Below are positions 16,801-64,000 of a stretch of DNA of 64,000 nt, piece by piece. Location: the NCBI GenBank assembly GCA_965112635.1, contig OZ218778.1, positions 1,888,001 to 1,952,000 of the forward strand. Direction: 5' to 3'. This DNA is from an uncultured bacterium. Its GTDB lineage: Bacteria > Oederibacteriota > Oederibacteriia > Oederibacteriales > Oederibacteriaceae. The notes below the pieces were generated by a model. The model had not been told where the DNA came from. It saw only the letters and a list, made by a program, of their open reading frames with translations, and searched no databases. The first letter of the stretch is position 1; each line of letters starts with the position of its first letter. Both the position numbers and the translations under genes were made by a program.

Positions 16801-17550
16801 GTTGAGGTCGCCAATGGCCATGCCTCCCTGTGTCCCTTCCTCACCAAAGCTCAAAGTCCAATCGGCTTGCGCACCGACGAACTGCTCGTTGTAGTTGGCT
16901 GGAACAGCCAGATCAACATCCGGATCAATGACCGCCTCACCCTTGGAGCCTACAGAGACCTTTAATTGCAGGTCGATGATGCCGTCCCCTTTTTGCTCGT
17001 AGGCCAGCAACCGGTGGTCCATTTTGGCCACATCAGACCAGCTGAAGTACCCAACGGCTTGTTTATAGCCTCCCCGCACAGGGAACGTCAGAGAGGCTCC
17101 CTTCATGACAGGCATGACATAGCGGCTTAGACCGGGATAGTCCTTGGCCGGCCGTTCCAATTCTTCGTGGGCGCGAAAGTCCAGGGCCTCTTTTTTCTCC
17201 GGCAGGGCGTACTCTTTGCCCTCATAAACAACGCGGTCCGTGTCGATCTGATAGTAGAGGTGGAGCGTGGTTGTCTTGTCTTTTTGAGTGGGATTTTTGA
17301 CCCGGATAGTTTGTTTTAACGACCGTTTTTGGGTCGCCGGCGATGCTTTGCCCAGGTCGTAGGTCACTTTGACCCTAAGCGCAGGATCATCACAGACAGC
17401 ACGGAAATCTTTAAATCCCTGTTTCAGGTCCTCTCGTAAACCGTTACTTTCGAACCCTGCCCCGGAAACTAGTTGGCTCATGCCGCCTACTAGGAGGAGG
17501 GTGCCTATGGTCAGGACTATCGTGAAAAAAGTTGTCGACGATTTATGCAA
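13894..17550 (-). CDS. Secreted FG-GAP (integrin-alpha-like beta-propeller) repeat protein with Thr stalk, two FlgD-Ig-like domains and C-terminal sorting-like domain
   Basis: Repeated AIGDLNGDG..DLVIG and GSVYIIYG motifs; TxT stalk; WDGKSDLG, WDGT, YPNPY...KISIIK. Confidence 0.85.
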   Translation of the reverse strand: MHKSSTTFFTIVLTIGTLLLVGGMSQLVSGAGFESNGLREDLKQGFKDFRAVCDDPALRVKVTYDLGKASPATQKRSLKQTIRVKNPTQKDKTTTLHLYYQIDTDRVVYEGKEYALPEKKEALDFRAHEELERPAKDYPGLSRYVMPVMKGASLTFPVRGGYKQAVGYFSWSDVAKMDHRLLAYEQKGDGIIDLQLKVSVGSKGEAVIDPDVDLAVPANYNEQFVGAQADWTLSFGEEGTQGGMAIGDLNGDGIPDLVIGDGNASYNGGGSGSVYIIYGGLVNFPLTMANQPDLNIFNNFDIRYDGPGGGANLGFALAIGDLNNDNVNDLVMGGGWAVWVKYGPFAGGPGAVVSFANPNNYNVEIVNNYAGAASFAIGDINGDNINDLAIGDIFYNNFAGRFISGSVFTIDGPLPAGPAAILDLNNVNNYDHLYVGAAAEVGMGQQVAIADVGGGAGGNTDGHPDLIMSAPGTSTNGKVNNGAVYVIYGPIGGGPGVMVDMNNINNCNVRFDGAQSANASEEMPYTAAPGDLGDGIALGFLNGNLDLAMGAAGENSQGRNGNGSVYIVYSNDNPTNFPLGNGNDVDLNLVNNFNIRLDGDGAFGAYATDFGDNMAIGQLCFSCTPVPSLAIGAGDAGSGALSNKPNNIWENGVVWVTTGPWTAGKGQIRDIANPAFYTMRYYGVSLGTGGEEVGGGNVLIGDLTGNGTNSLVMGAGLGEELGRPYCGDVYVENVTPCVSNTNTSTATSTYTSTNTGTATPTHTISPTSTATNTPTSTATITVTATITLTSTSTNTATPTATVTTLYSFTFTYTATETGTPTTTPTPLPTSTNTNTFTESATTTTTYTPLPTSTMTNTATITLTSTVTVTSSVTLTSSLTWTPSKTQTQTHTATVTATNTPVMTNLELKVYDEAGEVVKTFSNVLVLGGFSGIQLSSGSGSTIFDPNSGLFDIEIKSAGIIYHVPWDGKSDLGYLVDSGQYVLKADIPGLQGNTVVMPLTVLKSGDLLTVSIYTTSGELVKQLYQSYFVQGQLGSMKLTSNLLQISNQPTGTTTIGINIFSSTGQLMADGLGSLNQARLTWDGTTALGNYVQSGEYLIKIDQTYNHQHDVLVQSVTVLSSNLSGFMDASVYPNPYLSTPDHKVWFKVALQDQSSLTVRIYDVVGELVNTLSLPAAGPGIATLGWDVNNTAAGLYVGIVEADSQVSGQTQKKPLKISIIK

Positions 17551-17615: not shown

Positions 17616-20600
17616 TTATCTTATAATGATCACTTTGGTTATTGTTCTGTAGTTCGCAGCAGGGGTGTCCGCCTCCACGGCTGCCAGATACAAACCAGCG
17701 GACATCTTCCCCACATTCCAAGGGATGGCCAGCGTCCCGGACCCCGCAGCGGTGAGGGTCATGATCAAGTTGCCTGCCACATTGTAAATATTGATCCTGA
17801 TGCTGGCTGCCTGATTGATATCCACCTTGAAATAAATGGTCTGCGACCCCATCTCCCGATAGGGATTGGGATACGCTTTGGCGTCAAACCCGGGGTTGGA
17901 GGAGGAGACCAGCACCGTGATGCTCTTGGAATAGGTCACGATCCTGCCATTGTAAACCTGGTCGGCCTTGAGGATGTATTCGCCGTTCTGCACCAGGTTC
18001 CCCAAGCTGTTAGTGCCGTCCCAAAGGATGCGGCCGGGGGCCAGAGTCCCGTTGCTGTCGGAGAGATAAAGGCCGTTATCCCCCAACGCGCCCACTCCAA
18101 CCGTCGTGTTCTGTCCGGGGCCGGTCAGCAATAAGTTATTGGTCAAGGATATGCCTTCCAGCTGGCCCGAAGTGCTATATCCCTGGTAGATCTCCTTCAC
18201 CAGCTCTCCGGAAGTCGTGTAAATGTCCACTTTTAGATGGTTGCCCAAGCTGGTCACTATCACGCTGTTCGTAAAGGTAGTGGCTTTGCCGAACTGCGTC
18301 ACTTGGGATTTCAGGATATAGTCTCCGGGCTGCACCATGGCTCCCAGATCGTTGGTCCCGTCCCAGGGGATTTGCCATTGGCCTTTTTTGGTGGTCAGGA
18401 GGATCTCCAGCGGCACTCCGGAATCCTCCATCAGGGAGCCCGACCCGCCCAGCGTAATGGTGAGGTCGCTCAAATCGCCGAAGATCGGAACCCATCCAAG
18501 GGTCTTGACCACCTCGCCGTTGGTCGCGTAGATCACCAGGTCCACATTGAGCACAGGCGGCGTTATCGTTGGCGTGCAGGAGCTGGTCAGGGTCTTGCTC
18601 GGGGTGACCGTATTGGTCCAGGTCAAAGTCTGGGTGGGCGAAAAGGGAGGAGTGGAGGTGTTGCTGGGCGTAGAAGTGCAGCTGGGCGTGGCAGTATTGC
18701 TGGCGGTCCCGGTATTGGTGAAGGTATAGGAAAAGGTCTTGGTCAAAGTGACGGTATTGGTCAAAGAAGAGGTAATGGTCAAAGAGGGGGTCTGGGTGCT
18801 GGAAGGGGTGTTGGTGATTGAGTAAGTGGGTGTGTAGGTGGTCGTGAGAGTGATGGTCTGGGTATTGCTTTGCGTTATCGTGGCCGAGCCTGTAGGGCTG
18901 GCGGTCAAGGTTGCTGTGACGGTGGACGTGTTGATGAAGGTGAAAGTCGCCGAAGCTGAGGGGCTGACGGTCAAGGTTGCCGTGGGGGTGGGAGTGTTGG
19001 TGGAGGTGTAAGTCGCCGAAGCTGAGGGACTGACGGTCAAAGTTGCTGTGGTCGTAAATGTATTGGTGGCCGTATAGGTTCCGGAGGCGGTAGGGCTGGC
19101 GGTAACCGTGTAGGTATTGGTGGACGTGAAGAGGTTCGTGTAGGTTGCCGTGAGGGATGGGCTGGAGGTCAGGGTAGCTGAACTGGTGGCTGTGTTAGTG
19201 GCCGTGTTGGTGCTGGTGGCAGACGGGCTGACGGTCATCGTGGTCGTGCTGGTGCCTGTAATGGTGGCCGTGCTGGTGTCGGTGGCAGAGGGGCTGACGG
19301 TCATCGTGGCCGTGCTGGTGGCCGTGTTGGTGGCCGTGCGGGTACTGGTGGCAGAGGGGCTGACGGTCATCGTGGCCGTGGCGGTGGCTGTAATGGTGGC
19401 CGTGCTGGTGCTGGTGGCAGAGGGGCTGACGGTCATCGTGGCCGTGGCGGTGGCCGAGTTGGTAGAGGTGCGTGTGCTGGAGGCTGTCGGGCTGACCGTG
19501 GCTGTTGCGCTGGACGTGGAAGTTGAAGTGATGGTGTTGGTAATGGTGGAAGTGCAGGTGCTGCTGCCGGTCGGACTAGCCGTGGCGGTGGTCGTAATCG
19601 TGGGTGTGCATGTTGAAGTGCTGGTAGATGTGGCCGTATCGGTCGCGGTTGAGGTGCTGGTGTTTGTCGGGGCGCAATAAAGAGCCACTTGCGCGTCATT
19701 GGATGTAGTAGCCACTAAACCCGTGCCCTGGAGAGTACCGGTATTGTCGAGAAGGCCGGGACAGGCGGTCGTGGTCACCATAGCGGCAAAACCAAAAGGC
19801 GGAACAGAGGGCAGGTAGTATTTCACCACCACTTCGCAACTATCCACCGCCGAAGCGTCGGCTGGGCCGCTGACCGTGTTGTAGTAGCTGACGCGCAGGT
19901 TGTTCAGGTCAGCCCAGGTCCAGTTCGTATCCGCGGTGGCATCATAATAGCCGTCATCGGTGTTTCCATCAAAAGTTTCGCGCATAATATCAGCGGGAGC
20001 TCCGAGAAAGCCGTTGTTGGTCCCATCCATGGAATAGTTGAAATACAAGGGGTTGACTAATCCGTCGCCACCGTTAACGCCCTGTATTGTGCTGTGGAAC
20101 ATAACTCCGGCGATCACATATTGGTTCTGGTTCACCACGCCGGAGGGGCCGATTTGGAACCATCCCGTGTTGCCTGGAGTGAGGGTCGCAAAATTGCCGT
20201 CAGGGGCCCCTATGGTATTACCGGGGTTGGTCCATCCTGGAGCGTTAATGACAGAGGAAATATACTGGTCAGCGTAGTTGAAGGTCACCGAACCTGAGAG
20301 CGTGAATGTCCAGGAGACCAGGTTGGTCACGGGGTTATAGGTTCCCCCGCCTGTCGCTGAAACAAAGGCCATGCCCGCCGGCACGGTGTCATAGACCGTG
20401 ACCGTGCTGGCATCTTCGTCAAAGGAACCCATGGTGAAGGTGTAATTGACCGTACCGCCGGTAGCGGAAACGGTCACATCAGAGGCTTTGCTCAGGTCAA
20501 TGTCAGAGCCTGGAAAGAAGAAATACTCCCTGTATAAATTCATATCACCGCAGTTATTATTAATAAGCCCCCATGCGCTTGGTCCGTTCCCCAGGTAGGG

Positions 20601-21179
20601 CACATAACTATAGGGAACATTAGGCGGAGCAGGCATTATATAATACATCCACTGTCCTATGCCTGGCGTATCGTCAATAGGTGTGCCCCAGGTTGAATCA
20701 TCAAAACCCGGCATCATCCAATTGGCAGGCGGAACCGCCAGCTGACCGGCGCAGCCGCCGGGTGGATTTGTGCAACCACAACCTCCGGGAACATACAAAA
20801 ATTTTACGTTGGCGTCAGGATTGCTATAAATGACCACTGTGGGGGCGTCTGAATAATGGACAGTCAAGCGAAAAGTCACGGTCTGCGGACCGGAAGTATT
20901 GGGCGGATTGTCAACAGCAATGAGGTTTGTTTGGTTGGGAAGGAAGTCGTGCAAGTCAAGAGTACCGTCCGCGGTGGAATAACTAGTGATTTGGTCAAAG
21001 TTCCAACCAGTTGTCCCGCCATGAATTCCGTTAATGTAAAAATCTGCGTGGTCGTCTCCGGCTATTTCCAGGTCAGCTGAAACAATGTAGGCAATTGTTT
21101 GGCGGGGAACAAACAGTGATAGCAAACATAGAAAAATAATTTTCTTAAAAAATCTTTCTAGTACCTTTTGTTTAAGCAT
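17616..21179 (-). CDS. Large secreted protein: jelly-roll-like head, split DUF11, ~370-aa Thr stalk, two FlgD-Ig-like domains, C-terminal sorting-like domain
   Basis: Signal peptide; GDDHADFYING..PGFDDSTW head shared with 52141 and 54193; YPNPY...KVIIIR. Confidence 0.85.
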   Translation of the reverse strand: MLKQKVLERFFKKIIFLCLLSLFVPRQTIAYIVSADLEIAGDDHADFYINGIHGGTTGWNFDQITSYSTADGTLDLHDFLPNQTNLIAVDNPPNTSGPQTVTFRLTVHYSDAPTVVIYSNPDANVKFLYVPGGCGCTNPPGGCAGQLAVPPANWMMPGFDDSTWGTPIDDTPGIGQWMYYIMPAPPNVPYSYVPYLGNGPSAWGLINNNCGDMNLYREYFFFPGSDIDLSKASDVTVSATGGTVNYTFTMGSFDEDASTVTVYDTVPAGMAFVSATGGGTYNPVTNLVSWTFTLSGSVTFNYADQYISSVINAPGWTNPGNTIGAPDGNFATLTPGNTGWFQIGPSGVVNQNQYVIAGVMFHSTIQGVNGGDGLVNPLYFNYSMDGTNNGFLGAPADIMRETFDGNTDDGYYDATADTNWTWADLNNLRVSYYNTVSGPADASAVDSCEVVVKYYLPSVPPFGFAAMVTTTACPGLLDNTGTLQGTGLVATTSNDAQVALYCAPTNTSTSTATDTATSTSTSTCTPTITTTATASPTGSSTCTSTITNTITSTSTSSATATVSPTASSTRTSTNSATATATMTVSPSATSTSTATITATATATMTVSPSATSTRTATNTATSTATMTVSPSATDTSTATITGTSTTTMTVSPSATSTNTATNTATSSATLTSSPSLTATYTNLFTSTNTYTVTASPTASGTYTATNTFTTTATLTVSPSASATYTSTNTPTPTATLTVSPSASATFTFINTSTVTATLTASPTGSATITQSNTQTITLTTTYTPTYSITNTPSSTQTPSLTITSSLTNTVTLTKTFSYTFTNTGTASNTATPSCTSTPSNTSTPPFSPTQTLTWTNTVTPSKTLTSSCTPTITPPVLNVDLVIYATNGEVVKTLGWVPIFGDLSDLTITLGGSGSLMEDSGVPLEILLTTKKGQWQIPWDGTNDLGAMVQPGDYILKSQVTQFGKATTFTNSVIVTSLGNHLKVDIYTTSGELVKEIYQGYSTSGQLEGISLTNNLLLTGPGQNTTVGVGALGDNGLYLSDSNGTLAPGRILWDGTNSLGNLVQNGEYILKADQVYNGRIVTYSKSITVLVSSSNPGFDAKAYPNPYREMGSQTIYFKVDINQAASIRINIYNVAGNLIMTLTAAGSGTLAIPWNVGKMSAGLYLAAVEADTPAANYRTITKVIIIR
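19200..19480 (-). repeat. Intragenic 66-bp tandem repeat (22 aa, ...TMTVSPSAT...)
   Basis: GTGGCAGA(G/C)GGGCTGACGGTCATCGTGG on the + strand at 19216, 19282, 19348 and 19414. Confidence 0.9.
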
Positions 21180-52037: not shown

Positions 52038-52068
52038 TTGTGAGCGGAACTTTTTATGGCTATAATTG
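52038..52068 (+). promoter_or_regulatory. Promoter TTGTGA-N17-TATAATTG upstream of the cargo array
   Basis: TTGTGA at 52038-43 and TATAAT at 52061-66. Confidence 0.7.
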
Positions 52069-52140: not shown

Positions 52141-54138
52141 GTGGCAGGCTTTTCGAGGCAGGTTGCTTTCACAAAAAAACTTGGTCTTTTCTTTGTGTTT
52201 TTACTTTTACTTCCCTCCTTAGCCAGCGCCTATATCGTGACCGCGGACCTGGAAATATACGGTGATGACCACGCGCAATTTTATATTAACGGAAATCTGG
52301 GGGGACAGACCGGCTGGGATTTTGACCAGCCCACCAATTATTCCACAGCTGACGGAACTTTGGATTTGAACTGGTTTCTTCCCGGCAACCCTCTAAATCT
52401 TCTCGCAGCCGACAATCCGCCCAATACTTCGGGTCCGCAGAACTTGTCGTATCGATTGACCGTCCATTATTCTGATGGCACCACGGCGGTGGCCTGGAGC
52501 GATCCCACCACCGCAAAATTCATATATATACAGTGGCCCCTGACCCCTCCCCCTGGATGGATGAACCCGGGTTTTAATGATTCGGGGTGGTCAGCGCCCT
52601 TTGATTTTACGCCCAACGATGGTTCAGGCCAGTATTATCCCATGCCCGACCCCAGTAATGTGCCCTGGGATTATGTGCCTATTTTGTCCAACTCGGCCAC
52701 CACCCAGCCTAACCCCAGCGGCAGTCAAAATCTCTATAGGACTTATTTTAATTTTCCTGGTTCGGGCATTAATCTATCTAAAAGCTCCAATGTGACCGAA
52801 ACCGCTACAGGCCAAACCCTGAACTATACTCTCAATATAGGAACCCTGAACGATACGACCAGCACCATCACGGTCTATGACACAGTGCCGGCCGGCACGA
52901 CCTATGTCGCTGGCTCGGCGAACAATGGAGGGACTTATAACGCTGGGGACAACATGGTTACATGGAATTTTAATTTGACCGGACAGGTCAATTTCCAGTA
53001 TGCCTATTCCGATATCAGTTCGGTCATCAGCGCTCCGGGATGGACCAGTCCCGCTAGCGCCGTTGGTTTGACCACAGGCGCTTTTGGGGCCTCGTTCCCA
53101 TCCGGCGTGGGCAATACGGGATGGTTCCAGGTCGCGCCGTTCAATGTAGTTAATCCAAATCAATACATCATTGCCGGGGTCATTTTCCATAGCACTGTGG
53201 AGGATAAAGGGAGCAGCGGGGTCATCAACCCGATCATGTTCAATTATTCCGTGGACGGGACCGATAATCCGTACCTGGCCCAGGGGGTAGATGTCGAGCG
53301 CGAGACATTTCAAAATACTTCCGTAGACGGCTATTATGACGCGACCGCTGACAGGAGCTGGACCTGGGCCGACCTGAATAATCTGCGTGTTAGTTATTAC
53401 GATGACATTACGGCTCCGGCCGGAGATACGATGTCCCTAGACGGGCTGGAGGTCGTGATCAAATACTACCTGCCTTCCGTAGTGCCGTTCGGGTTCAGCG
53501 CGCTGGTGACCATCACGGCGAACTGCCCCGGGCCCACCACGATCGATAATACCGCGATGCTGCAAGGGGTCAGCCTGGTGGCCACGACCTCCAATGACGC
53601 CCAGGCGGCCCTGTATTGCAACACCACCAACACCAACACGCCAACCATTACGAACACCTCTATCTTTACGAGTACGGCTACTCCGACAATCACCGGGTCT
53701 GCCACGGCTACTCCCACCATCACCACCACCGCGACCAATACCGTGACCGGAAGCAGCACCGTGACCCCATCACTGACTGTAACCTCGTCCCAGACTTTTA
53801 CGCCCAGCCAGACAATGACCTCTACCCTGACCTTCACGCCGGTGCCTTCCATTTACATTTATCCGAACGTCTTTAATCCTGATAAGGGTCAGAAGCTGAA
53901 GTTCTGGGGCATTCCTCCTGCCAGCAAGGTTTCCATCTACACTTTGACCACCGAACTGGTGTGGCATAGCGACCTGTCGCCCAACAATAACCTGCTGCTC
54001 ATTTGGGACGGCAGGAATATGCAGGGACAGGTAGTGGCCACTGGATTGTATTTCTATGTCCTGGATATGTGGGACAGCCCCTTGCAGCGCCGGCACATCA
54101 AGAAAGTGGGTAAGATAGGCATCCTCAGAGGCGAATAG
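52141..54138 (+). CDS. Secreted protein: head X (jelly-roll-like plus split DUF11), Thr stalk, short C-terminal sorting-like domain
   Basis: Close paralog of the 21179 head; tail YPNVFNPDK..KFWG...WDGRN..GQVVATGLYFY...IGILRGE. Confidence 0.85.
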   Translation: MAGFSRQVAFTKKLGLFFVFLLLLPSLASAYIVTADLEIYGDDHAQFYINGNLGGQTGWDFDQPTNYSTADGTLDLNWFLPGNPLNLLAADNPPNTSGPQNLSYRLTVHYSDGTTAVAWSDPTTAKFIYIQWPLTPPPGWMNPGFNDSGWSAPFDFTPNDGSGQYYPMPDPSNVPWDYVPILSNSATTQPNPSGSQNLYRTYFNFPGSGINLSKSSNVTETATGQTLNYTLNIGTLNDTTSTITVYDTVPAGTTYVAGSANNGGTYNAGDNMVTWNFNLTGQVNFQYAYSDISSVISAPGWTSPASAVGLTTGAFGASFPSGVGNTGWFQVAPFNVVNPNQYIIAGVIFHSTVEDKGSSGVINPIMFNYSVDGTDNPYLAQGVDVERETFQNTSVDGYYDATADRSWTWADLNNLRVSYYDDITAPAGDTMSLDGLEVVIKYYLPSVVPFGFSALVTITANCPGPTTIDNTAMLQGVSLVATTSNDAQAALYCNTTNTNTPTITNTSIFTSTATPTITGSATATPTITTTATNTVTGSSTVTPSLTVTSSQTFTPSQTMTSTLTFTPVPSIYIYPNVFNPDKGQKLKFWGIPPASKVSIYTLTTELVWHSDLSPNNNLLLIWDGRNMQGQVVATGLYFYVLDMWDSPLQRRHIKKVGKIGILRGE

Positions 54139-54192
54139 GCTTGGCCGTTCCTCCTGGGTCAGAGGTTTGTGCCCTAAAGACTGGCGCAGAAG

Positions 54193-57081
54193 ATGCACTT
54201 AGAAAAGAAGGATAGCCCTATGCAAGGGATGAAGATATTCGGGCAACTCATCATTAAACCTTTATTGGTCCTAATCCCTCTCTCTTTTTTATCCCCCGCC
54301 CTGGCCAGTGCCGGAGGATATCTGCGGGCCGTTGACCTGGAACTGACCGGGGATGATTATATACAGGGTGCTTATGTCAACAACACTCTGATAGGTGGTA
54401 CTCCCTGGAGAAACGACACCATGTTCTTTTATTCCACGGTGGACGGGACCCTGCCCATCAATATTTTTATGCCTGGCGTCACCAACCTTTTGGCTGCCAA
54501 TAATCCACCTGAGTCAGGGGGGCCCAATGATATTACCTACCGGTTGACCTTTCATTTTTCGGACGGGACCGAGACCTATGCCTGGAGCAACCCTGACGCC
54601 AACTCATTTATGTTTCAGGCTCCGAACGCTGGGGCAGTTCCTCCTGGATGGATGAACATTGGATTTTCCACGGCGGGTTGGACAAACCCCTCGCCGGCTC
54701 TTTCGTACGCGGCCGCGCACCAGTGGTATTATGTCATTCCCGATGCCAATAATGCGCCTTATGGCTATGTGCCCTATTTATCGGACAGCGGTCCCAGCGT
54801 TCACAATAATCCTGGTGGTGTGGTGGATCTATTCAGGACGAATTTTACCTTTCCCGATTCCAATGTGGCTCTCGAGAAGAGCTCGAACGTGACCGGCACG
54901 GCGGTAGGAGGCACGATTGCCTACACCATTACCCTGGGCGACTTTGGGGCCAGCATCGGCGACGTCACGGTCTACGATACCCTTCCGGCCGGCACGACCA
55001 TCATCCCCGGTTCGATAATCGGAGGCGGGTCCTATAATCCCGTGACCAACATGGTTTCCTGGAACTTTAACGTCCCCAACGCGGTCACCATGAATGATGT
55101 CACTACGAATATAAGTTCTGTGGTCAGCGAACCAGGGTGGATAGACACAAGCCCTTCGTCAGCTATTGGAGTGACTGATAATGCCTGGGATGCTTTTTTT
55201 TCCGGCCAGCCTGGATGGTTCCAGGTGGCCCCGCCTGTTGTGGCTAACGAAAACAATTATGTCATTGCCGGAGTTTTGTTTTACAACACCGTCGTGGACG
55301 CCGGCCCTGCCGCTGGCGGAAGTCCTGTCGGGATGGACCCCCTGGACTTTAACTATTCCGTGGACGGGACCGATAACCCTTTTCTGGCCTCACCCCCGAA
55401 TATCATGCGCGAGGCCGGCGACCCCACCGGCTATTGGGGTGTGGGTCCGGGGACCCAGTCGTTAGGTTATTATGACGCCACCTCGGACAGGAACTGGACC
55501 TGGGCGGATGTGAACAATCTCAGGGTGAGCTACACTTCCATTGCTCAATTCCAGCAGGAGTTGGTGGCCCTGGACGGCATGGAGATGGTCGTCCAGTATT
55601 ACCAGCCTTCGGTCCCGCCGTTCGGGTTCAGCGTCACCGTGGACAATCAACCCTGCCCCTCCACGCTCCATAATACGGCATCGGTTGCGGGGTCCAAGAT
55701 CATCACCACGACTTCCAATGACGCGCCCGTGGACGTCCTGTGCGCCATCACCGGCACGCCCACCGCCACGTTCACGGCCACGGCGACCGCCACACCCACG
55801 GCGACGGCCACGGCCACGGCTACTCCCGCCCCCGGCACTTCCACTTTTACGAGCACGGATACCTCCACGGGCACGCCTACCCCGACCTACACGGTGGGCC
55901 CTTCACAAACCGCTACGAACACAAATACCGCCACTGCAACCGGCACCGCGACCGCCACGAGCACCAACACCCCGCCTCCCACGAACACGATGTCCGTCAC
56001 CTATACGCCGACCATCACCTGCACTTCCACGGTCACGCTCACTTCCTCCAATACTTTCACTTCTTCCATGACCTCGACGGTTTCCTATACCTCGACGGCC
56101 ACGGCCACGAACACGCCCCAGACGGTCGTGATGCAGTTGAAGCTGTATAACAGCTCAGGCGAGATCGTCAAGACATTCAACAACCTTGTTTTTGTCCAGA
56201 TGGGTTTTGATTTCTCCAAGGTGCAGATCGACCCGGCCGGTGGGTCGGACCTCTTCGACCCGAGCACCGGTCTTTTCAACATCGAGGTGAAATCCGGAAG
56301 TTCGGTCTTTACCATCCCGTGGGACGGCAAGAACGACCTGGGTTACACGGTGGACAGCGGGGGATATTTGTTCAAAGCCGAAGCCCAGGGGCAGAACAAC
56401 ACGATCACGATGCCCGTGACGGTCTTGAAATCGGGCGACCTGACGACCATCTGCGTCTACACGACCAGCGGGGAACTGGTGAGGCAGCTTTACCAGAACT
56501 ATCTGGTTCAGGGTCAGCTCGGCAGCATGAAACTGAGCGCCAACGTGCTGACAGTGAACGACAAGAACAAAAAGACGGTGAATATCGGCATCAATTCTTT
56601 GTCCGAGAGCGGGTCGGCTTTGATGGACCAGATCGGACCCCTGGACCAGACCCGCATCTTTTGGGACGGCACCAGTTCCACGGGCGGTTTTGTGCAGAGC
56701 GGGGAGTATTTGATCAAGATAGACCAGATCTACAATGGCTCTCATTACTCGACTGTGCAGAGCGTCACGGTGCTGGTGTCCTCGTTCAGCGGGTTCATGG
56801 ACGCCTCGGCCTATCCCAACCCCTACATCTCCACCCCGGACCAGAAGGTGTGGTTCAAGGTCAGCTTGCACGACCAGTCGGACGTCAAGATCAGGATCTA
56901 CAACGTGGTGGGAGAACTGGTCAACACGCTCTTCGCGCCGGGAGCCGGAGCGGGTTCGGCCAGTCTGGGATGGAACGTGGGAGGGGCTGCCAGCGGGCTT
57001 TACGTGGGGGTCGTGGAGGCCAAATCCCTGGTCAGCGGCGAAACGCAGAAAAAGCCCGTCAAGATCACCCTCATCAAATAG
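54193..57081 (+). CDS. Secreted protein: head X, Thr stalk, two FlgD-Ig-like domains and C-terminal sorting-like domain
   Basis: Head paralogous to 52141; tail paralogous to the 59329 and 17550 genes; YPNPY...KITLIK. Start may be 54220 or 54229. Confidence 0.85.
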   Translation: MHLEKKDSPMQGMKIFGQLIIKPLLVLIPLSFLSPALASAGGYLRAVDLELTGDDYIQGAYVNNTLIGGTPWRNDTMFFYSTVDGTLPINIFMPGVTNLLAANNPPESGGPNDITYRLTFHFSDGTETYAWSNPDANSFMFQAPNAGAVPPGWMNIGFSTAGWTNPSPALSYAAAHQWYYVIPDANNAPYGYVPYLSDSGPSVHNNPGGVVDLFRTNFTFPDSNVALEKSSNVTGTAVGGTIAYTITLGDFGASIGDVTVYDTLPAGTTIIPGSIIGGGSYNPVTNMVSWNFNVPNAVTMNDVTTNISSVVSEPGWIDTSPSSAIGVTDNAWDAFFSGQPGWFQVAPPVVANENNYVIAGVLFYNTVVDAGPAAGGSPVGMDPLDFNYSVDGTDNPFLASPPNIMREAGDPTGYWGVGPGTQSLGYYDATSDRNWTWADVNNLRVSYTSIAQFQQELVALDGMEMVVQYYQPSVPPFGFSVTVDNQPCPSTLHNTASVAGSKIITTTSNDAPVDVLCAITGTPTATFTATATATPTATATATATPAPGTSTFTSTDTSTGTPTPTYTVGPSQTATNTNTATATGTATATSTNTPPPTNTMSVTYTPTITCTSTVTLTSSNTFTSSMTSTVSYTSTATATNTPQTVVMQLKLYNSSGEIVKTFNNLVFVQMGFDFSKVQIDPAGGSDLFDPSTGLFNIEVKSGSSVFTIPWDGKNDLGYTVDSGGYLFKAEAQGQNNTITMPVTVLKSGDLTTICVYTTSGELVRQLYQNYLVQGQLGSMKLSANVLTVNDKNKKTVNIGINSLSESGSALMDQIGPLDQTRIFWDGTSSTGGFVQSGEYLIKIDQIYNGSHYSTVQSVTVLVSSFSGFMDASAYPNPYISTPDQKVWFKVSLHDQSDVKIRIYNVVGELVNTLFAPGAGAGSASLGWNVGGAASGLYVGVVEAKSLVSGETQKKPVKITLIK

Positions 57082-57120
57082 AGTGGTTCTGTTCGTCGGA
57101 TTAATTATTTTAGGAGTTCA

Positions 57121-59286
57121 ATGGGCATAGTAATATCTAAATCGAAAATTTATTTTATTGCCGTCACCATGGCCGCCCTTTTTGCTGTCCCTGTTTTTGC
57201 CTATGTGCCGGCTTGCCCTCAATTTTCCATAGCCTGTAAAAGCTCGGAACTGCCAGGCGGCAACTGGGACCATCAGCCCATTTTCCCTGAAATAGGGGAC
57301 GAGGGAATGGTCCATATCACCGGCTCTGGCGCTGGACCCGTGACCGCGGGTCAAGCCGGCACGGCGACTTTTAGCCCCTTTTGGCCTGTGGGCAATCCCA
57401 CGGATGGCGTGTATTTTGGATTGGCCAGCTCGGGTCCCAACAACAACTCAGCCTGGTGGGAGTGGAACGGGGCGGATGTGGGCAACTGGTTCAACGGAAC
57501 CTGTGGCGGTGAACTGACCTTTAATATCTGCTCCAATTACACCTGGGCCCAGCGGCAGGCAGGGTCCGGGGGAGGCACTGTATTCGGGGTCACCGATAAC
57601 GGGACCCGCCAGATATTCGGTTTTTCCATTAACGCGCCTGCGGGGAACAACCTGTCCGTTTCCTACTCCACGGGCCAGAACGGTTCCAGCAATTGCGGCA
57701 CGGTTCCCGGGGGTGACGCCAACTTCGGGGTGGGCAAAGCGCTACAGGTCAGAGTGGAGTGGAACGCTTCACCCGTGGTGATCACCAACTACCTTTACAT
57801 CAACGACGTTTTGATCTGCTCCGGCCTGTATTTGCCGGTCACCCCGAGCTGGGGCGCTAACTCATATTTCAACCTGGGAGCGAATACAGGAGGCTACAAC
57901 AGCTGCTTGGACAGCATTGCCGATTTTGAGTGCAGCACCTTCACCGGCTGCAGTTGTCTCAATACGCCTACCGTCACCCAGACCCCCATCCCTTACCCAA
58001 CTCCGTGGCCGAATACGGCCTGCCCCGACCTTTCTACCTGGAAATTGGTGGGCACTGCCGCTTATGTGGCCGGGAACAACCAGATCAACTTGTGCCAGAT
58101 GCAAAACGGCCCGGGCGGGGCCTGGGCGCCCACCTGCATAGACCTGACCAAGAATTTCGCCTATTCCTTTGAGCTGAATTTTGGGACTCCGGCTGACACT
58201 CCTCCGACCGGCGCGGACGGCATCTGCTTTGTCCTGCAGAACGACCCGGCTGGGACGGGCGCATTGGGCGGGGGCGGAGGCGGCATAGGCTTCGCGGGCC
58301 TCGGCGCGACAGGCGGCGCCCTGGCCGCCGAATTTGACACCTATACCAACGGCTGGGACATATCATTTCCGGAGGACCATACCGCCATTGACCTTAACGG
58401 GGACGTGACCCATACCATTCCGGCTCGCTATCCCGTGTGGGCCAGTTTGACCCAGCCTGACATCAAGGACGGCAATGACCATCTGGTCAGGGTGCTCTGG
58501 GACGCGACCAATCATAACCTTTTTATTTACTTCGACGGCAGCCGGCGCATCGTCTATAACTCCGACATCGTCAATGCCGTCTTTGGGGGGACCCACTGCG
58601 TTTACATGGGACTGACCAGCAGTATCGGCGGAAGTTATACCAATTTGCAGATGTTCCATTGCGTGTGCGGCACCGTGACGCCCACCAACACCTGGACCAT
58701 TTCGCCGACCAGCACGGCCACGCCGACCATCACTCCCACCTCGACCATAGGACCTTCCGGGACCCCTACCAGCACGGCCACCCCTACCTTGACCCAGACG
58801 ACCACCTCTACCGCCACGCAGACCACTACCATCACCCAGACCTTCACGAATACCTTTACCTTGACCTTTACAGCGACCTTCACCTTGACTTTGACGCCTT
58901 CCCAGACCCTGACCAGCAGCCAGACCCTGACCTCGTCCCTGACCTTCACGCCCACCCTGACCAGCACCCCTTCCGGGACCAGCACGCCCGTACCGCCGAT
59001 CATTGTGTATCCCAACCTCATCAACCCTGACAAGCACCAGTCCGTCAAGTTCTGGGGATTGCCCGCGTACAGCAAGGTCACCATTTACGACCTGAGCACG
59101 GAATTCGTGTGGCGAAGCGCCCTTTCCGGCGGCAACGAGCTGGAGATCATCTGGCCCGGATGTAACCAGAGCGGTATACCCGTGGCCCAGGGCATTTATT
59201 TCTACATTATCGAGATGTGGAACGGCCCGGACCACAGTGTGCTTAATAAGAAGATGGGCCATATCGGAGTCCTCAGGGGCGGTTGA
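57121..59286 (+). CDS. Secreted protein: head Y (includes a legume/L-type lectin-like domain), Thr stalk, short C-terminal sorting-like domain
   Basis: GADGICFVLQN, AEFDTY.N, DH.AI..NG, H.VRV.WD, Y.G.T.S.GG; tail paralogous to 52141. Confidence 0.85.
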   Translation: MGIVISKSKIYFIAVTMAALFAVPVFAYVPACPQFSIACKSSELPGGNWDHQPIFPEIGDEGMVHITGSGAGPVTAGQAGTATFSPFWPVGNPTDGVYFGLASSGPNNNSAWWEWNGADVGNWFNGTCGGELTFNICSNYTWAQRQAGSGGGTVFGVTDNGTRQIFGFSINAPAGNNLSVSYSTGQNGSSNCGTVPGGDANFGVGKALQVRVEWNASPVVITNYLYINDVLICSGLYLPVTPSWGANSYFNLGANTGGYNSCLDSIADFECSTFTGCSCLNTPTVTQTPIPYPTPWPNTACPDLSTWKLVGTAAYVAGNNQINLCQMQNGPGGAWAPTCIDLTKNFAYSFELNFGTPADTPPTGADGICFVLQNDPAGTGALGGGGGGIGFAGLGATGGALAAEFDTYTNGWDISFPEDHTAIDLNGDVTHTIPARYPVWASLTQPDIKDGNDHLVRVLWDATNHNLFIYFDGSRRIVYNSDIVNAVFGGTHCVYMGLTSSIGGSYTNLQMFHCVCGTVTPTNTWTISPTSTATPTITPTSTIGPSGTPTSTATPTLTQTTTSTATQTTTITQTFTNTFTLTFTATFTLTLTPSQTLTSSQTLTSSLTFTPTLTSTPSGTSTPVPPIIVYPNLINPDKHQSVKFWGLPAYSKVTIYDLSTEFVWRSALSGGNELEIIWPGCNQSGIPVAQGIYFYIIEMWNGPDHSVLNKKMGHIGVLRGG

Positions 59287-59328
59287 TAGCCTCTCCAGGC
59301 ATTTTTTGACAAACTTAAGGAGAAGATC

Positions 59329-62280
59329 GTGGTCAAAATGGCAGTCGTCATTCTTGGATGCATAGGCCTGACCCTCCTTGTTGTCCTGGCAACGGTCCCC
59401 CTCCAAGCCGGCTGCACGGAATTCCAGGTCAATGGCAATTCCATGGAAGTACCTGACGGCGATTACAACGGGAACATCATTGTGCCAGAGGTGGGTCCCT
59501 TGGGCACGGTCCAAATAGACGGCACGGGAGGCGGGCCGGTCAATACTCCCGCGCAAGAGGGATTTATCAAATGGGACCCTTTTGACGGGGTGGGCAATCA
59601 GGACGGTTTTACCTTTGGCCAGGGCGGGGGAGGCACCAACCTTAACGCCTGGTGGAGCTGGCAGGGAGCGCAAGTGGGGGATATTTTCAGCACCTGCGGG
59701 GGCGATATCAACTTTGATATCAAATCGGATTTCACCTGGTTGTTCCGGGAGGTTGGCGCGGGCGGGGGTATTACCTTTGATGTCAGCGATGACGGGAACC
59801 GGTCTCTTTTTACATACTCCATGAGCGGCACTGCCTGCACTCAACAATGTTTGCTCGGCGGCTATACGGCTATGGGCACCGCTGGCAACGGCGTTATCCA
59901 GGGCGCGTTCGCTTTTTTCGGCAATATCGGCGATGTCATGCATATGGATATACGCTGGGATACCAATAACATTTATTTATACGTTAATGGCAATCTGTTG
60001 GACACCACTCCCATAGCCGCTCTTAACCCGCCCATCACCTGGGGCCCCAACTCCTACTTCAATATAGGAGCGGGGGCGGAATTCGCCCCCTGGATGGGAC
60101 GCTTTTGTTTTCAGGACACCGTTGCTGATTTTAAGATAACTTCAGCGGCCGGGTGCCCCTGCATCGGCCCGGATATGCCCCAGCCCACTCCCACCCCTTT
60201 TCTCATCCCGGATAATTTTTGCCCTGACCTGTCCACTTGGAGGATCGTCGGCACAGCCCAAAAGGTGCCTGCGAATAATCAGATCAACCTGTGCGAGACG
60301 GACCACGGTCCGGGAGCGGCCTGGGCGCCCACCTGCATCAATCTGACCCAGAACTTTGCTTTTACTTTTTATGAAAATTTTGGCGTGCCTGCTGACAATC
60401 CTCTCACCGGCGCGGACGGCATCTGCTTTGTCCTGCAGAATTCCGGCCCTAATGCCATAGGGGGCGGCGGAGGAGGTATTGGCGCTGCCGGAGTGCCTCT
60501 TGGCGGGATCAGCCCGTCCGTTATCGCGGAAATAGACACCTATGACAACCTGGGTTGGGATCCCGGCTTTGACCACGCGGCCATAGACCTCAATGGCGAT
60601 GCGGAGCACCAGGGCCACGCGCCGGTGTGGGCCAGCATGGTCCAGCCGGATATCAAGGACGGCTTGGACCATATCTGCCGTTATCTTTGGGACGCAGGGA
60701 CAGATACTTTGTATGTGTATTTTGACGGAAGCCTGCGCCTGACCTATACCAACCCCAACATCATTACCGCCCTGGGGACCAACTGCCCCTATTGGGGCCT
60801 GACCAGTTCCATTGGCGGGAGCTATACTAATTTGCAGATGTTCCATTGCATTTGCGGGACCCCGACCAACACGAACACGGCGACTGCTACCAATACCGCC
60901 ACGGCCACGGCTACGGCGACCGCGACTCCGACCGTGTCGCCGACCGCCACGGCTTCGCCTTCGGCGACCGCCAGCCCCACGGTCACCAACACCCGGACCG
61001 TGACCAACACCGGAACGGCTACCTATACCGGCACGGCTACAGGGACCGCCTCGAACACCTTTACCATCACCGTGACCGCCACCCAGACCGATACGGCCAC
61101 ATCCACGGACACGCCAACCTGGCAGTTCTCCCCGACCACCACCTTTACGGCCACCCAGACCTATACCGCAACCGTGACGGATACTTCCTCGCTGACCGCC
61201 ACCATCACGCAGACCTCCACGGTCACGGTGACCAGTTCCACGACCCTGACCTCTTCCCTGACCTCCACCCCTTCCAAGTCCTTTACCCAGACCTGGACCG
61301 CCACCGTGACCGCCACCAGCACGCCGGTGATGACCGACCTGAAGTTAAAGATCTACAATGAGGCCGGGGAGGTAGTCAAAACTTTCAATGATGTGCTGGT
61401 CCTGGGGGCCTTGAGCGGCATCCAGCTCGATTCGGGAAGCGGCACCGTGCTTTTTGACCCCAGCAGCGGCATCTTTGACATCGAGGTCAAGAGCCAGGGG
61501 ATCGTGTACCATGTGCCGTGGGACGGCAAGAGCGACCTAGGAAATACCGTGGACAGCGGGGAATACGTGCTCAAGGGAGAGGTGCCCGGGCAGAGCTCGA
61601 CCGTCACCATGCCCGTGACGGTCTTTAAGGCCGGCAATCTCCTGACCATCGGCGTGTATACCACCAGCGGCGAACTGGTCAAGCAGTTGTATGAGAGCTA
61701 CCTGGTCCAGGGCCAGCTCGGCAGCATGAAACTGAGCGCCAATCTGCTGACCGTGAACGACAAGAATAAAAAGACCGTGAATATCGGCATCAACTCCTTG
61801 TCCGAGAATGGGGCGGTTATGGCGGACCAAATAGGGCTCCTGGACCAGAACCGGATCTTCTGGGACGGCACCAACAGCCTGGGCGGTTTCGTGCAGAGCG
61901 GAGAATACCTGGTCAAGATCGAGCAGACCTACAACCACAATCATGACGTGGTGGTGCAGAGCGTGACGGTGCTGGTGTCCTCGTTCAGCGGGTTCATGGA
62001 CGCTTCGGTGTATCCCAACCCGTACATCAGCACGCCGGACCAGAAGGTATGGTTCAAGGTCACCCTGCAGGACAATGCCGACGTCAGAGTGAGGATCTAT
62101 GACGTGGTCGGGGAACTGGTCAACACCCTCAGCAGTCCGGGGGCGGGCCCCGGTCCGGCCAGCCTGGGGTGGAACGTGGGCGGGTTGGCCAGCGGGCTTT
62201 ACGTGGGCATCGTGGAGGCCAAGTCCCTGGTGAGCGGAGAAACCCTGAAAAAACCTTTAAAAATATCGATTATTAAGTAA
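59329..62280 (+). CDS. Secreted protein: head Y (L-type lectin-like), Thr stalk, two FlgD-Ig-like domains and C-terminal sorting-like domain
   Basis: Head paralogous to 57121; tail paralogous to 54193; YPNPY...KISIIK. Confidence 0.85.
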   Translation: MVKMAVVILGCIGLTLLVVLATVPLQAGCTEFQVNGNSMEVPDGDYNGNIIVPEVGPLGTVQIDGTGGGPVNTPAQEGFIKWDPFDGVGNQDGFTFGQGGGGTNLNAWWSWQGAQVGDIFSTCGGDINFDIKSDFTWLFREVGAGGGITFDVSDDGNRSLFTYSMSGTACTQQCLLGGYTAMGTAGNGVIQGAFAFFGNIGDVMHMDIRWDTNNIYLYVNGNLLDTTPIAALNPPITWGPNSYFNIGAGAEFAPWMGRFCFQDTVADFKITSAAGCPCIGPDMPQPTPTPFLIPDNFCPDLSTWRIVGTAQKVPANNQINLCETDHGPGAAWAPTCINLTQNFAFTFYENFGVPADNPLTGADGICFVLQNSGPNAIGGGGGGIGAAGVPLGGISPSVIAEIDTYDNLGWDPGFDHAAIDLNGDAEHQGHAPVWASMVQPDIKDGLDHICRYLWDAGTDTLYVYFDGSLRLTYTNPNIITALGTNCPYWGLTSSIGGSYTNLQMFHCICGTPTNTNTATATNTATATATATATPTVSPTATASPSATASPTVTNTRTVTNTGTATYTGTATGTASNTFTITVTATQTDTATSTDTPTWQFSPTTTFTATQTYTATVTDTSSLTATITQTSTVTVTSSTTLTSSLTSTPSKSFTQTWTATVTATSTPVMTDLKLKIYNEAGEVVKTFNDVLVLGALSGIQLDSGSGTVLFDPSSGIFDIEVKSQGIVYHVPWDGKSDLGNTVDSGEYVLKGEVPGQSSTVTMPVTVFKAGNLLTIGVYTTSGELVKQLYESYLVQGQLGSMKLSANLLTVNDKNKKTVNIGINSLSENGAVMADQIGLLDQNRIFWDGTNSLGGFVQSGEYLVKIEQTYNHNHDVVVQSVTVLVSSFSGFMDASVYPNPYISTPDQKVWFKVTLQDNADVRVRIYDVVGELVNTLSSPGAGPGPASLGWNVGGLASGLYVGIVEAKSLVSGETLKKPLKISIIK

Positions 62281-62298: not shown

Positions 62299-62329
62299 TT
62301 GTGACACAATCACTTCAGGGCTATAATTG
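62299..62329 (+). promoter_or_regulatory. Promoter TTGTGA-N17-TATAATTG upstream of the LolA-like gene
   Basis: TTGTGA at 62299-304 and TATAAT at 62322-27. Confidence 0.65.
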
Positions 62330-62361: not shown

Positions 62362-63081
62362 ATGAAAAAGGGACTATTAATTTTGTTCGCGCCTCTTTTG
62401 TTATTTTGTATTCCAGTTTGGGCGGGCCATGAGTACACGATGGATGAAATAGTCAGTAAGGTCCAGGAGGGGAGCGGGGGCATAGGGCAAATCGACGTGA
62501 AAGTGAAAGAAACGACCCTGCAGGGGTCGGAGACCAAGCAGCGGCAGTACCGGATAAGGAAAAAAGGGGACATGGTGAGGATGGACATGGACGACCTGGG
62601 CCAGAGCATTGTCCTCAAAAACAATGAAATACAGGTAAGGGGCAGGGATAGGAAGGTCCACAAAAATAAAACTGCGGCTGGTCTGGCAGGGCAGACGATG
62701 GATAAGATATTTGGAAAAGACCTGGCGGAGATGAAAAAGGACTATGACCTGCAAATAGACAGGCAAGCCAGCCAATCAGACAAAGAACTGTATGTTGTTC
62801 TTGCGGTGCCGAAGAAGAAAAACAACTCCACCCCACCGCTGAACCTTACGGTGGACATGAACAAGGGGTTGGTCATAAAAAGCGAGCAATTAACTGATGA
62901 CCATAAGCCCTGGGTCACAACAGAAGTGTTGGATTCCGTCCAAAAGAACGGCAAGTGGGTCGTCCTTAAAACAAGAACAAAGACCAATTACAAAGGCAGG
63001 GAAAGGATCAAAGAAACCCAATTTGAGTTCAGTTCCCTGAATGAAGGGGTCAGCGATACGGATTTTGAATTAGGTCACTAA
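62362..63081 (+). CDS. LolA-like / outer-membrane lipoprotein-sorting-fold periplasmic protein
   Basis: Signal peptide; EIV.KVQ, VRMD, YVVLAVPK, L.VD..KGL..K.E, C-terminal N.GVSD.DF. Confidence 0.6.
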   Translation: MKKGLLILFAPLLLFCIPVWAGHEYTMDEIVSKVQEGSGGIGQIDVKVKETTLQGSETKQRQYRIRKKGDMVRMDMDDLGQSIVLKNNEIQVRGRDRKVHKNKTAAGLAGQTMDKIFGKDLAEMKKDYDLQIDRQASQSDKELYVVLAVPKKKNNSTPPLNLTVDMNKGLVIKSEQLTDDHKPWVTTEVLDSVQKNGKWVVLKTRTKTNYKGRERIKETQFEFSSLNEGVSDTDFELGH

Positions 63082-63125: not shown

Positions 63126-64000
63126 ATGTTTAAGTTAAAAAGACTGGAAATCTTTGGGCTGTTTTTCTGCCTGCTTTTGTTTTTTGGGCAAAGCGTTAGG
63201 GGAGACAACAGCTCTAACTTTATTGCCTGGCAAAAAGGGGTAAATGGCACCACGACTTATGGCCATCTTTTTTTCTACGCTTTTACGAACAATACCTCGG
63301 CCACCCTTTACGGCACCCAGGTTTCGAACGTACAGATGGACCTGCCCGCCAACTTTATATCCCAGAACAACTTTGTCAATGCCGGGACCCTGGGAGGCCA
63401 GCCCTGGAACCCCATGAATGATTTCAACACTTATTACTTTTACGTGACCTGCAGCAGTTCGGTCATCTGGGAGGCCGACGAGGACATCTACAACAGCGAC
63501 TATAACGCGGATACCTGGCTTACCTCCACGAACGGGACCGATGCAGGAACCATGTTCTTCACGCATTTGTTCAGCGACGTGGACCAGCCCGCCAACAACA
63601 ACAACGGCGAGGCTGTGGCCGTGGTCAACAATAACGCCTTTGATGTGACGGTGAATTGGGATAAGTGGAACGGCGCTGGCTGGACCAACCTGAGCGCCAA
63701 CAATGTTGTAACGGCCGGCGGGATTTGGATGACCAGCGGCACGGTGGGCGGCACCGGCACTGTCCTGGCTGATGAAAACGATTTCCGGCTCACGGCCAGC
63801 GCCAATGTCAGTGTTCTCAAGGGGTGGCTGGGAAACGGAGGCGCGGATGACTGGTGGACGGTTTCTCCGGACCTGGTGACCGGTTTAAAATACGGCACAA
63901 ACTTGGTAGGGGTCATTTCTTCGGGTCCTGGTTTAAATTTCTCCCTTTCCGCGCCGGCCGGCGGTCCCAGCGTAAACTACCAGATATTCGAGTATGTGCC
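63126..64000 (+). CDS. 3'-truncated secreted Asn/Gly/Thr/Trp-rich protein (probably another cargo)
   Basis: ATG 63126 with signal peptide MFKLKRLEIFGLFFCLLLFFGQSVRG. Frame is open to the window end, so it is absent from the ORF track. Confidence 0.75.
   Translation, partial: MFKLKRLEIFGLFFCLLLFFGQSVRGDNSSNFIAWQKGVNGTTTYGHLFFYAFTNNTSATLYGTQVSNVQMDLPANFISQNNFVNAGTLGGQPWNPMNDFNTYYFYVTCSSSVIWEADEDIYNSDYNADTWLTSTNGTDAGTMFFTHLFSDVDQPANNNNGEAVAVVNNNAFDVTVNWDKWNGAGWTNLSANNVVTAGGIWMTSGTVGGTGTVLADENDFRLTASANVSVLKGWLGNGGADDWWTVSPDLVTGLKYGTNLVGVISSGPGLNFSLSAPAGGPSVNYQIFEYV

Follow-up and report, generated by a model that had tools for sequence, protein, structure and literature searches.

Why would a bacterium encode unrelated surface heads in adjacent duplicate, one copy ending in a short tail and the other in a long tail? 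The question is raised by a 64,000-nucleotide (nt) stretch of DNA, hereafter the window (genome positions 1888001-1952000, forward strand), from an uncultured member of the Oederibacteriota (family Oederibacteriaceae; assembly GCA_965112635.1, contig OZ218778.1) whose genome is a single contig of 2.88 Mb. Gene coordinates refer to the window unless marked as genome positions. The original prediction described four tandem genes running headX-short, headX-long, headY-short and headY-long with matching tails, and its coordinates and module identities were confirmed in every particular. It also proposed looking for the same pairing past the window end, where we found a third pair, making the array a 3 x 2 arrangement of six genes, A to F (headX-short, headX-long, headY-short, headY-long, headZ-short, headZ-long). 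Sorting signals of the C-terminal domain (CTD) type have been studied almost only in Bacteroidota, where the idea that the CTD encodes the destination rests on engineered swaps. The locus is a natural equivalent of these swaps, with three unrelated heads that each carry the same two alternative tails.

The pair proteins have a common build, consisting of an N-terminal signal-like hydrophobic segment, a head (approximately 470-500 amino acids (aa) in A-D), a threonine-rich stalk, and a C-terminal tail. Gene A (52141..54138, + strand, 665 aa) encodes a signal peptide followed by head X (residues 31-501, nt 52231-53643), a stalk (residues 502-570, nt 53644-53850), and the short tail (residues 571-665, nt 53851-54135). 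Gene B (54193..57081, +, 962 aa) also starts with a signal peptide and joins head X (residues 40-527, nt 54310-55773) via a stalk (residues 528-644, nt 55774-56124) to the long three-domain tail (residues 645-962, nt 56125-57078). The second pair consists of gene C (57121..59286, +, 721 aa), with a signal peptide, head Y (residues 27-525, nt 57199-58695), a stalk (residues 526-626, nt 58696-58998), and the short tail (residues 627-721, nt 58999-59283), and gene D (59329..62280, +, 983 aa), with a signal peptide, head Y (residues 28-518, nt 59410-60882), a stalk (residues 519-668, nt 60883-61332), and the long tail (residues 669-983, nt 61333-62277). Gene E (head Z and short tail, 715 aa) begins in the window (63126..64000, +) and continues beyond it (genome 1951126-1953273), and its partner F (head Z and long tail, 984 aa) lies outside the window (genome 1953257-1956211).

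The heads are clearly paired by sequence. In global alignments, 233 of 454 aligned residues (51%) are identical between the A and B heads and 244 of 465 (52%) between those of C and D; for E and F, head identity is 49% across 529 aa, and in the BLAST comparison the within-pair identities were 46%-49%. Between X and Y heads, no BLAST match was obtained with low-complexity masking, and A and C align only at the stalk and tail. Head Y comprises an N-domain and an L-type lectin domain (PF18483, Lectin_L-type_dom; 108.2 bits in C and 97.2 bits in D, gathering threshold 78.3), and a Pfam-type profile scan found no family match for head Z. A DUF11-type repeat scores above the cut-off in head X only for B (TIGR01451, 26.4 bits, cut-off 24); both Pfam matches of gene A (CHU_C, 23.1 bits, and DUF11, 20.9 bits) are below cut-off, and an X-head profile gave one marginal match (E 0.007) among PDB sequences.

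Stalk lengths differ within the pairs, as the original prediction had noted (69 aa in A, 117 in B, 101 in C, 150 in D, 88 in E, and 114 in F), and the stalk of each long form exceeds that of its short-form partner by 26-49 aa. Threonine makes up about 40% of each stalk. The short tail is a single 95-aa domain, identical at 51 of 95 positions (54%, global alignment) between A and C, and the E tail is 65%-70% identical to both. The long tail (approximately 315 aa) contains three FlgD_ig/CTD-like domains, as identified with jackhmmer; B and D are identical at 227 of 315 positions (72%, global alignment), and identities among B, D, and F range from 68% to 88%, the last value being that between the F and D tails.

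Profile searches and fold models both relate these tails to type IX secretion system (T9SS) sorting domains. The AlphaFold2 model of the C short tail is a seven-strand beta-sandwich (predicted local distance difference test score (pLDDT) 91.7) with the PorZ CTD as its top PDB match (5m11; E 2.3e-5, TMq 0.72, root-mean-square deviation 2.7 over 92 columns), followed by PorU (6za2), FlgD, and a T9SS substrate CTD (8glk_D). The short tail of gene A likewise matches the PorZ C-terminus (E 1e-5), in a sub-threshold profile match. In the model of the D long tail (mean pLDDT 82.7), three beta-sandwiches are predicted, including the last domain, and Foldseek matches of the whole tail are generic immunoglobulin (Ig) arrays, PorU and PorZ among them. 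FlgD_ig (PF13860, cut-off 27) is above cut-off in the long tails (B 36.9, D 37.1, and F 38.4 bits) and sub-threshold in the short-tail genes C (13.4 bits) and E (18.1 bits). The T9SS type A models come near their cut-offs in the long tails without reaching them (TIGR04183, cut-off 23: B 21.8 and D 19.4 bits; Por_Secre_tail PF18962, cut-off 27: B 16.9, D 20.6, and F 18.4 bits), and neither of them matches the short tails. For the short-tail genes, the type B CTD model CHU_C (PF13585, cut-off 27), which we take to be equivalent to TIGR04131, gave scores below cut-off (A 23.1, C 18.4, and E 23.0 bits); TIGR04131 itself did not match the array proteins at E<=0.1. Taken together, the profile matches and fold models indicate that both tails end in a T9SS-style C-terminal sorting domain, which in the long tail is predicted to be type-A-like. 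A complex prediction for the D long tail with the C short tail scored 0.00, which carries no evidential weight either way.

Iterated searches recovered about 83 open reading frames (ORFs) with a CTD-like domain in the genome, C-terminal in 80 of them. In a tree of these 80 terminal CTDs, the domains of A, C, and E form a clade with a long stem (support by the SH-like approximate likelihood ratio test, SH-aLRT, 99) that is private to the array, with no further members in the genome. The terminal domains of 11 three-domain tails make up another clade (SH-aLRT 95) with a nine-row core (SH-aLRT 100) that holds B, D, and F, and a third large clade, here called x4, has 17 members (support 95). Because the A/C/E clade and the long-tail core with B, D, and F are both strongly supported, the array pattern is not a product of chance. 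That the short tail might simply be a long tail minus two domains was also considered and ruled out, as its CTD and the terminal CTD of the long tail are in different clades.

How, then, did the same two tails come to sit on three unrelated heads? According to the original prediction, module exchange at the stalk was needed and separate trees of heads and tails would be incongruent, and both expectations were borne out. In approximately unbiased (AU) tests on a 28-row subset of the 80 CTDs, picked to cover the clades, tail clades joining A with B (p 1.6e-38), C with D (p 2.3e-6), and E with F (p 9e-4) were all rejected. Head X provides a further case, as it is present four times in the genome with four different tails: short in A, long in B, a divergent three-domain tail in X3 (17616..21179, - strand, 1187 aa), and an x4-type tail in X4 (genome 222979-225138). 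The X3 head is 57% identical to that of A and 43% to that of B, and its CTD groups with the CTD of gene 2632176. The four head X copies are monophyletic (100/100) with respect to eight outgroup proteins (640-690 aa) from three genomes of another family, and a single clade for their tails was rejected (AU test, p 2e-8). Among the four paralogs, internal supports for the branching order are only 27-42, and B is on the longest branch. In each of seven outgroup proteins there is a single weak CTD-like match, at the C-terminus; the eighth (L051) has no profile match, but its C-terminal sequence looks similar by eye.

More recent exchange has left near-identical tails on unrelated heads. Long-tail cassettes at approximately 204, 371, and 1901 kb of the genome (genome 206656-207603, genome 373683-374630, and window 13894-14841, - strand), the last belonging to a gene with an FG-GAP head (13894..17550, -), differ at only 18-19 of 948 nt (98% identity) and are all attached to unrelated heads. 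In the 300 nt of stalk upstream of these cassettes, the identity is 66%-74%, and past the stop codon it collapses, a pattern that points to recent gene conversion among loci separated by as much as 1.7 Mb. Within the array, the D and F tails share 90% nt identity, including a 195-nt exact run, on the unrelated heads Y and Z, and their similarity begins within the last ~35 residues of the stalk. The genes at genome 1363879-1365438 and 1977598-1979472, whose heads are 95% identical over 327 aa and whose CTDs belong to different clades, represent another recent tail swap. Because head and tail histories disagree and near-identical cassettes end at sharp borders, these comparisons show that the tail is exchanged as a cassette, by gene conversion or recombination, bordered by the stalk's 3' end on one side and the stop codon on the other. 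Such copying between distant genes is a simple mechanism for building new surface proteins.

The genome also encodes a family of PorV-like barrels (36 ORFs), and we scored CTD genes as barrel-linked when a PorV-like barrel gene followed within 1 kb (<=1 kb) downstream on the same strand. This applied to none of the 3 genes in the A/C/E clade, to 1 of 11 in the long-tail clade (its divergent member), and to none of 17 in the x4 clade, compared to 23 of 49 in the other CTD clades. As barrel linkage correlates with CTD clade, the clades appear to be handled differently. The barrel-paired cargo of the same genome involves the same CTD superfamily and barrel family, but all six array genes lack an adjacent barrel, and their CTD clades are essentially never barrel-linked.

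Relatives were searched among genomes of the same phylum only, none of them closer, and the following genome counts include the source genome. Three-domain tails (approximately 25%-36% identity) were found in 38 of 41 genomes searched and CTDs of the short-tail type in all 41. The heads are rarer: at the E-value cut-offs used, head X had a match in 14 of 99 genomes (in full length only in three genomes, all from one other family), head Y with its lectin domain in 19 of 99, and head Z in 6 of 99. A search for homologues of the B head returned four proteins, namely B, A, X3, and a 692-aa protein with 50% identity. A protein atlas gave only weak leads for the X and Z heads (DUF11-type at 0.75; unnamed clusters at 0.91-0.93). 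When the X-head alignment was compared with genome contigs, the only one of 43 pattern stretches to pass was on an unrelated Thermoplasmata contig. Against metagenome contigs, one of 260 stretches passed for the short-tail alignment (L025), a generic CTD with 39% identity and no long-tail paralog downstream.

In a biased sample of 29 regions from relatives, of which 20 surround long-tail matches and 9 lectin matches, related arrangements were nevertheless encountered. In one region (L031, 3757-12205; G020:C4:598756-607204), a 1955-aa three-domain-tail gene is followed by a 733-aa single-CTD gene, and the N-terminal heads of these neighbours have 87% identity across 427 aa. In two species of one genus from another family of the phylum (L055, 460-7178, G094:C2, and L054, 512-7125, G025:C20), adjacent genes have a common 380-aa lectin-containing module (identity 99.5% and 86%, respectively), differ in their N-terminal parts, and end in CTDs that are unrelated by BLAST at E 1e-4. 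The common module looks homogenised in both pairs, with the tails staying different. As all three regions combine a common head or module with different tails, the placement of the same head with two tails side by side appears to be a recurring theme in the phylum.

What might two tails per head achieve? The closest precedent is the T9SS of Flavobacterium johnsoniae, in which cargo likewise combines a Sec signal with a passenger and, at the C-terminus, an Ig-like sorting domain. Published work describes type A CTDs that act with PorV and type B CTDs that act with PorP/SprF-like shuttles cognate to them (Paillat et al. 2025, PMC12618676; PMC9143113). The CTD contains both secretion and targeting signals, and with an exchanged CTD, SprB ended up in the medium or statically attached at the surface, and AmyB or RemA on the gliding track (PMC12618676). 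Different CTD classes are served there by different outer-membrane barrels, and a CTD swap moves the same passenger. Some cargo genes there adjoin their own shuttle gene and orphans share one, similar to the barrels that follow 23 of 49 genes here as opposed to none or one in each of three large clades. Unlike in F. johnsoniae, the swap described here is natural and hard-wired as adjacent pairs, three times running, the barrels are PorV-like rather than PorP-like, and one of the two signals is a 315-aa three-domain tail. The organism is also outside the named T9SS model groups, and PorU, GldK, GldM, and PorP were not found in its genome, the GldM and PorP searches being without a positive control.

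A second likeness is to the gingipains (RgpA, RgpB, and Kgp) and HagA of Porphyromonas gingivalis, which are T9SS cargo paralogs with a common catalytic head and varying length or content between head and CTD. RgpB is not known to carry the adhesin modules. Gingipain genes differ from the array in being dispersed rather than arranged in ordered pairs and in all having the same CTD class; furthermore, their long form adds adhesin domains, whereas the long form here adds Ig-like spacer or docking domains and a CTD of a different clade. Modular C-terminal regions and gene conversion in T9SS cargo are already known, exemplified by the combinatorial modularity of gingipains and HagA and gene conversion among their C-terminal modules (PMC5266723), as are CTD-class-specific shuttles (PMC12618676, PMC9143113). 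In a non-exhaustive literature search, we found no description of an ordered array in which three unrelated heads each carry the same two tail classes, outside a recognisable T9SS.

On this basis, we favour a reading in which A to F would be Sec-exported surface proteins built from a head, a threonine-rich stalk, and a C-terminal sorting tail, and in which the tails may serve as sorting or anchoring signals read by different outer-membrane partners, like the CTD classes of Bacteroidota. Two modes of delivery would then result for each head. The proposal that each head reaches different anchors or display heights through its two tails is, by analogy with these systems, an evenly balanced one. 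The long form might be kept at a greater distance or on another anchor, because its stalk is 26-49 aa longer and it has two extra Ig domains; the short form might be held close in or released. The original prediction had suggested two destinations or co-assembly of the pair members, and this has become more plausible because the tails belong to different CTD clades and a CTD change redirects the same passenger in F. johnsoniae. A more specific version, that every head is built in two versions for dual display, with each CTD clade addressed to a different shared outer-membrane receptor, is possible but rather doubtful. It could take the form of a two-tier coat, in which short stalks with a single CTD would make up the proximal tier and longer stalks plus two Ig domains the distal tier, or of a released and an anchored pool. 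Gene conversion would keep each address tag uniform genome-wide, so that new heads could be plugged in, in a phylum whose CTD-sorting machinery would not be a canonical T9SS. Together with the 36 candidate barrels, the six proteins and two tail classes of the locus offer a test set for the relation between tail class and receptor or surface location outside Bacteroidota.

Several observations weigh against delivery to two places. A canonical T9SS core was not found in the genome: SprA and PorV matches are sub-threshold, PorU was not found apart from CTD-region matches, GldK and GldM were not found (the GldM search matched no control genome), no PorP-family match was obtained in a search without a positive control, and GldL and GldN were not searched. 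For SprA, five partial matches fall in one 1851-aa ORF (genome ~116.6-119.9 kb, - strand; best 104.5 bits, cut-off 200), a candidate for a distant SprA-like translocon, and all 30 PorV matches are below cut-off (best 98.1 bits, cut-off 250); the resemblance to the T9SS, as far as profile matches can tell, lies in the cargo tails and barrels. No partner gene lies close to either tail; the nearest barrel is 4.9 kb beyond F, with unrelated genes in between. Moreover, the heads within pairs are only 46%-52% identical, so that ligand rather than destination may be the main difference between the members of a pair. Gene conversion is self-reinforcing, and the homogeneity of the tails therefore need not reflect selection for a common partner. 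Finally, the exact short and long pairing was not found in the other same-phylum genomes searched, and the recurrence of similar pairs cannot be quantified because the regions were chosen around long-tail or lectin matches.

A rival reading is a neutral origin, in which the tails of ~80 stalk-plus-tail genes are freely shuffled by gene conversion and the pairs are old tandem head duplicates that fixed different tails by chance; the functional weight would then be on head divergence towards new ligands, and the tail difference would be of little consequence. Tail swapping is indeed rife, as illustrated by the four tail types of head X, the swap between the 1363879 and 1977598 genes, and the near-identical cassettes on unrelated heads, and the divergence of paired heads to about 50% identity and the lack of the same pairing in the other genomes searched also agree with this view. 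It accounts less well for the likeness of the three pairs in order (short, then long), in their two tail clades, and in head divergence (46%-49%), or for the confinement of the A/C/E tail clade to the array. In addition, no neighbouring genes of this genome other than A/B, C/D, and E/F combine the same head with different tails, the two other directly adjacent same-head pairs keep a single tail type, and the adjacent pair in another family, with a module 86%-99.5% identical and different tails, looks maintained rather than accidental. We place a neutral by-product on the unlikely side, although even then the locus would cleanly exemplify how sorting modules evolve in concert. Co-assembly, in which short and long members would hetero-oligomerise via their paralogous heads and the long member alone would anchor the complex, or both tails would jointly dock on one receptor, seems less probable still. 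The tight co-directional spacing within pairs (54, 42, and -17 nt) fits stoichiometric co-expression, and the Y heads have an L-type lectin domain. L-type lectins commonly oligomerise, and paralogs derived from homo-oligomers often retain the interface. However, oligomerisation would be required of three unrelated head types, and each member has its own complete CTD-like sorting domain, so that its export would be independent of the partner.

An entirely technical explanation, an assembly chimera of repeats, had been named in the original prediction as one of two findings that would overturn it; the alternation would then have been created by misjoined repeats in the threonine-rich stalks or the tails. 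The stalks are of low complexity, and a few short contigs from other runs have joints in stalk regions or short sides, which are most simply explained as other paralogs, organisms, or strains. The exact words shared by any two of A to F are short, however, with at most 42 nt (<=42 nt) for all pairs other than the 195-nt run in the D and F tails, and the genome is one 2.88-Mb contig. Furthermore, Logan contigs with 0 differences bridge the junction of stalk and short tail in A (run X1 record 3, 53658-54004, and run X4 record 22), the B-C intergenic region (run X1 record 6, 57061-57405), and the junction of stalk and long tail in D (run X2 record 13, 61228-61423). These contigs are short and of low coverage, none spans a whole gene, and one run may be the source sample, so that not all of them are independent. 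A chimera is highly improbable. Separately, a 241-nt contig of run X4 aligns partly with the B tail (56520-56591, 4 differences) and partly with the D tail (61838-61956, 6 differences), and may possibly stem from a mosaic tail of another strain or paralog.

The genes A to F are co-directional, and a gene for an exported LolA-like protein (62362..63081, +, 239 aa; Pfam LolA_like, 30.9 bits, cut-off 30) lies between the second and third pairs. In the order A, B, C, D, LolA-like gene, E, F, the intergenic spacers are 54, 39, 42, 81, 44, and -17 nt. A promoter-like site with the signature TTGTGA-17-TATAAT (52038..52066, +; 10/12 consensus matches, a consensus match only) precedes gene A. Since the same signature, again as a consensus match, is found upstream of the LolA-like gene (62299..62327, +), the array probably forms two transcription units, A-D and LolA-like-E-F.

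The flanks of the array contain genes for glycan metabolism. Upstream (47631-51976), there are genes for an NAD-dependent epimerase, a GT4/GT1 glycosyltransferase, and a YfhO-family membrane protein, and downstream (genome 1956257-1958143) a Wzy_C (O-antigen-ligase-like) protein with tetratricopeptide repeats (TPR) is encoded. From their position, these flanking glycan genes might glycosylate the stalks with their ~40% threonine. Between F and the downstream barrel lie the Wzy_C-TPR gene, efp, accB, accC, and recO, and the nearest upstream barrel is 18 kb before A. In the same region, a 550-aa open frame (genome 1961157-1962809) has a RecO-like start followed by a PorV-like barrel with its own signal-like segment, and probably represents either two genes that share a frame or an ORF extended in error.

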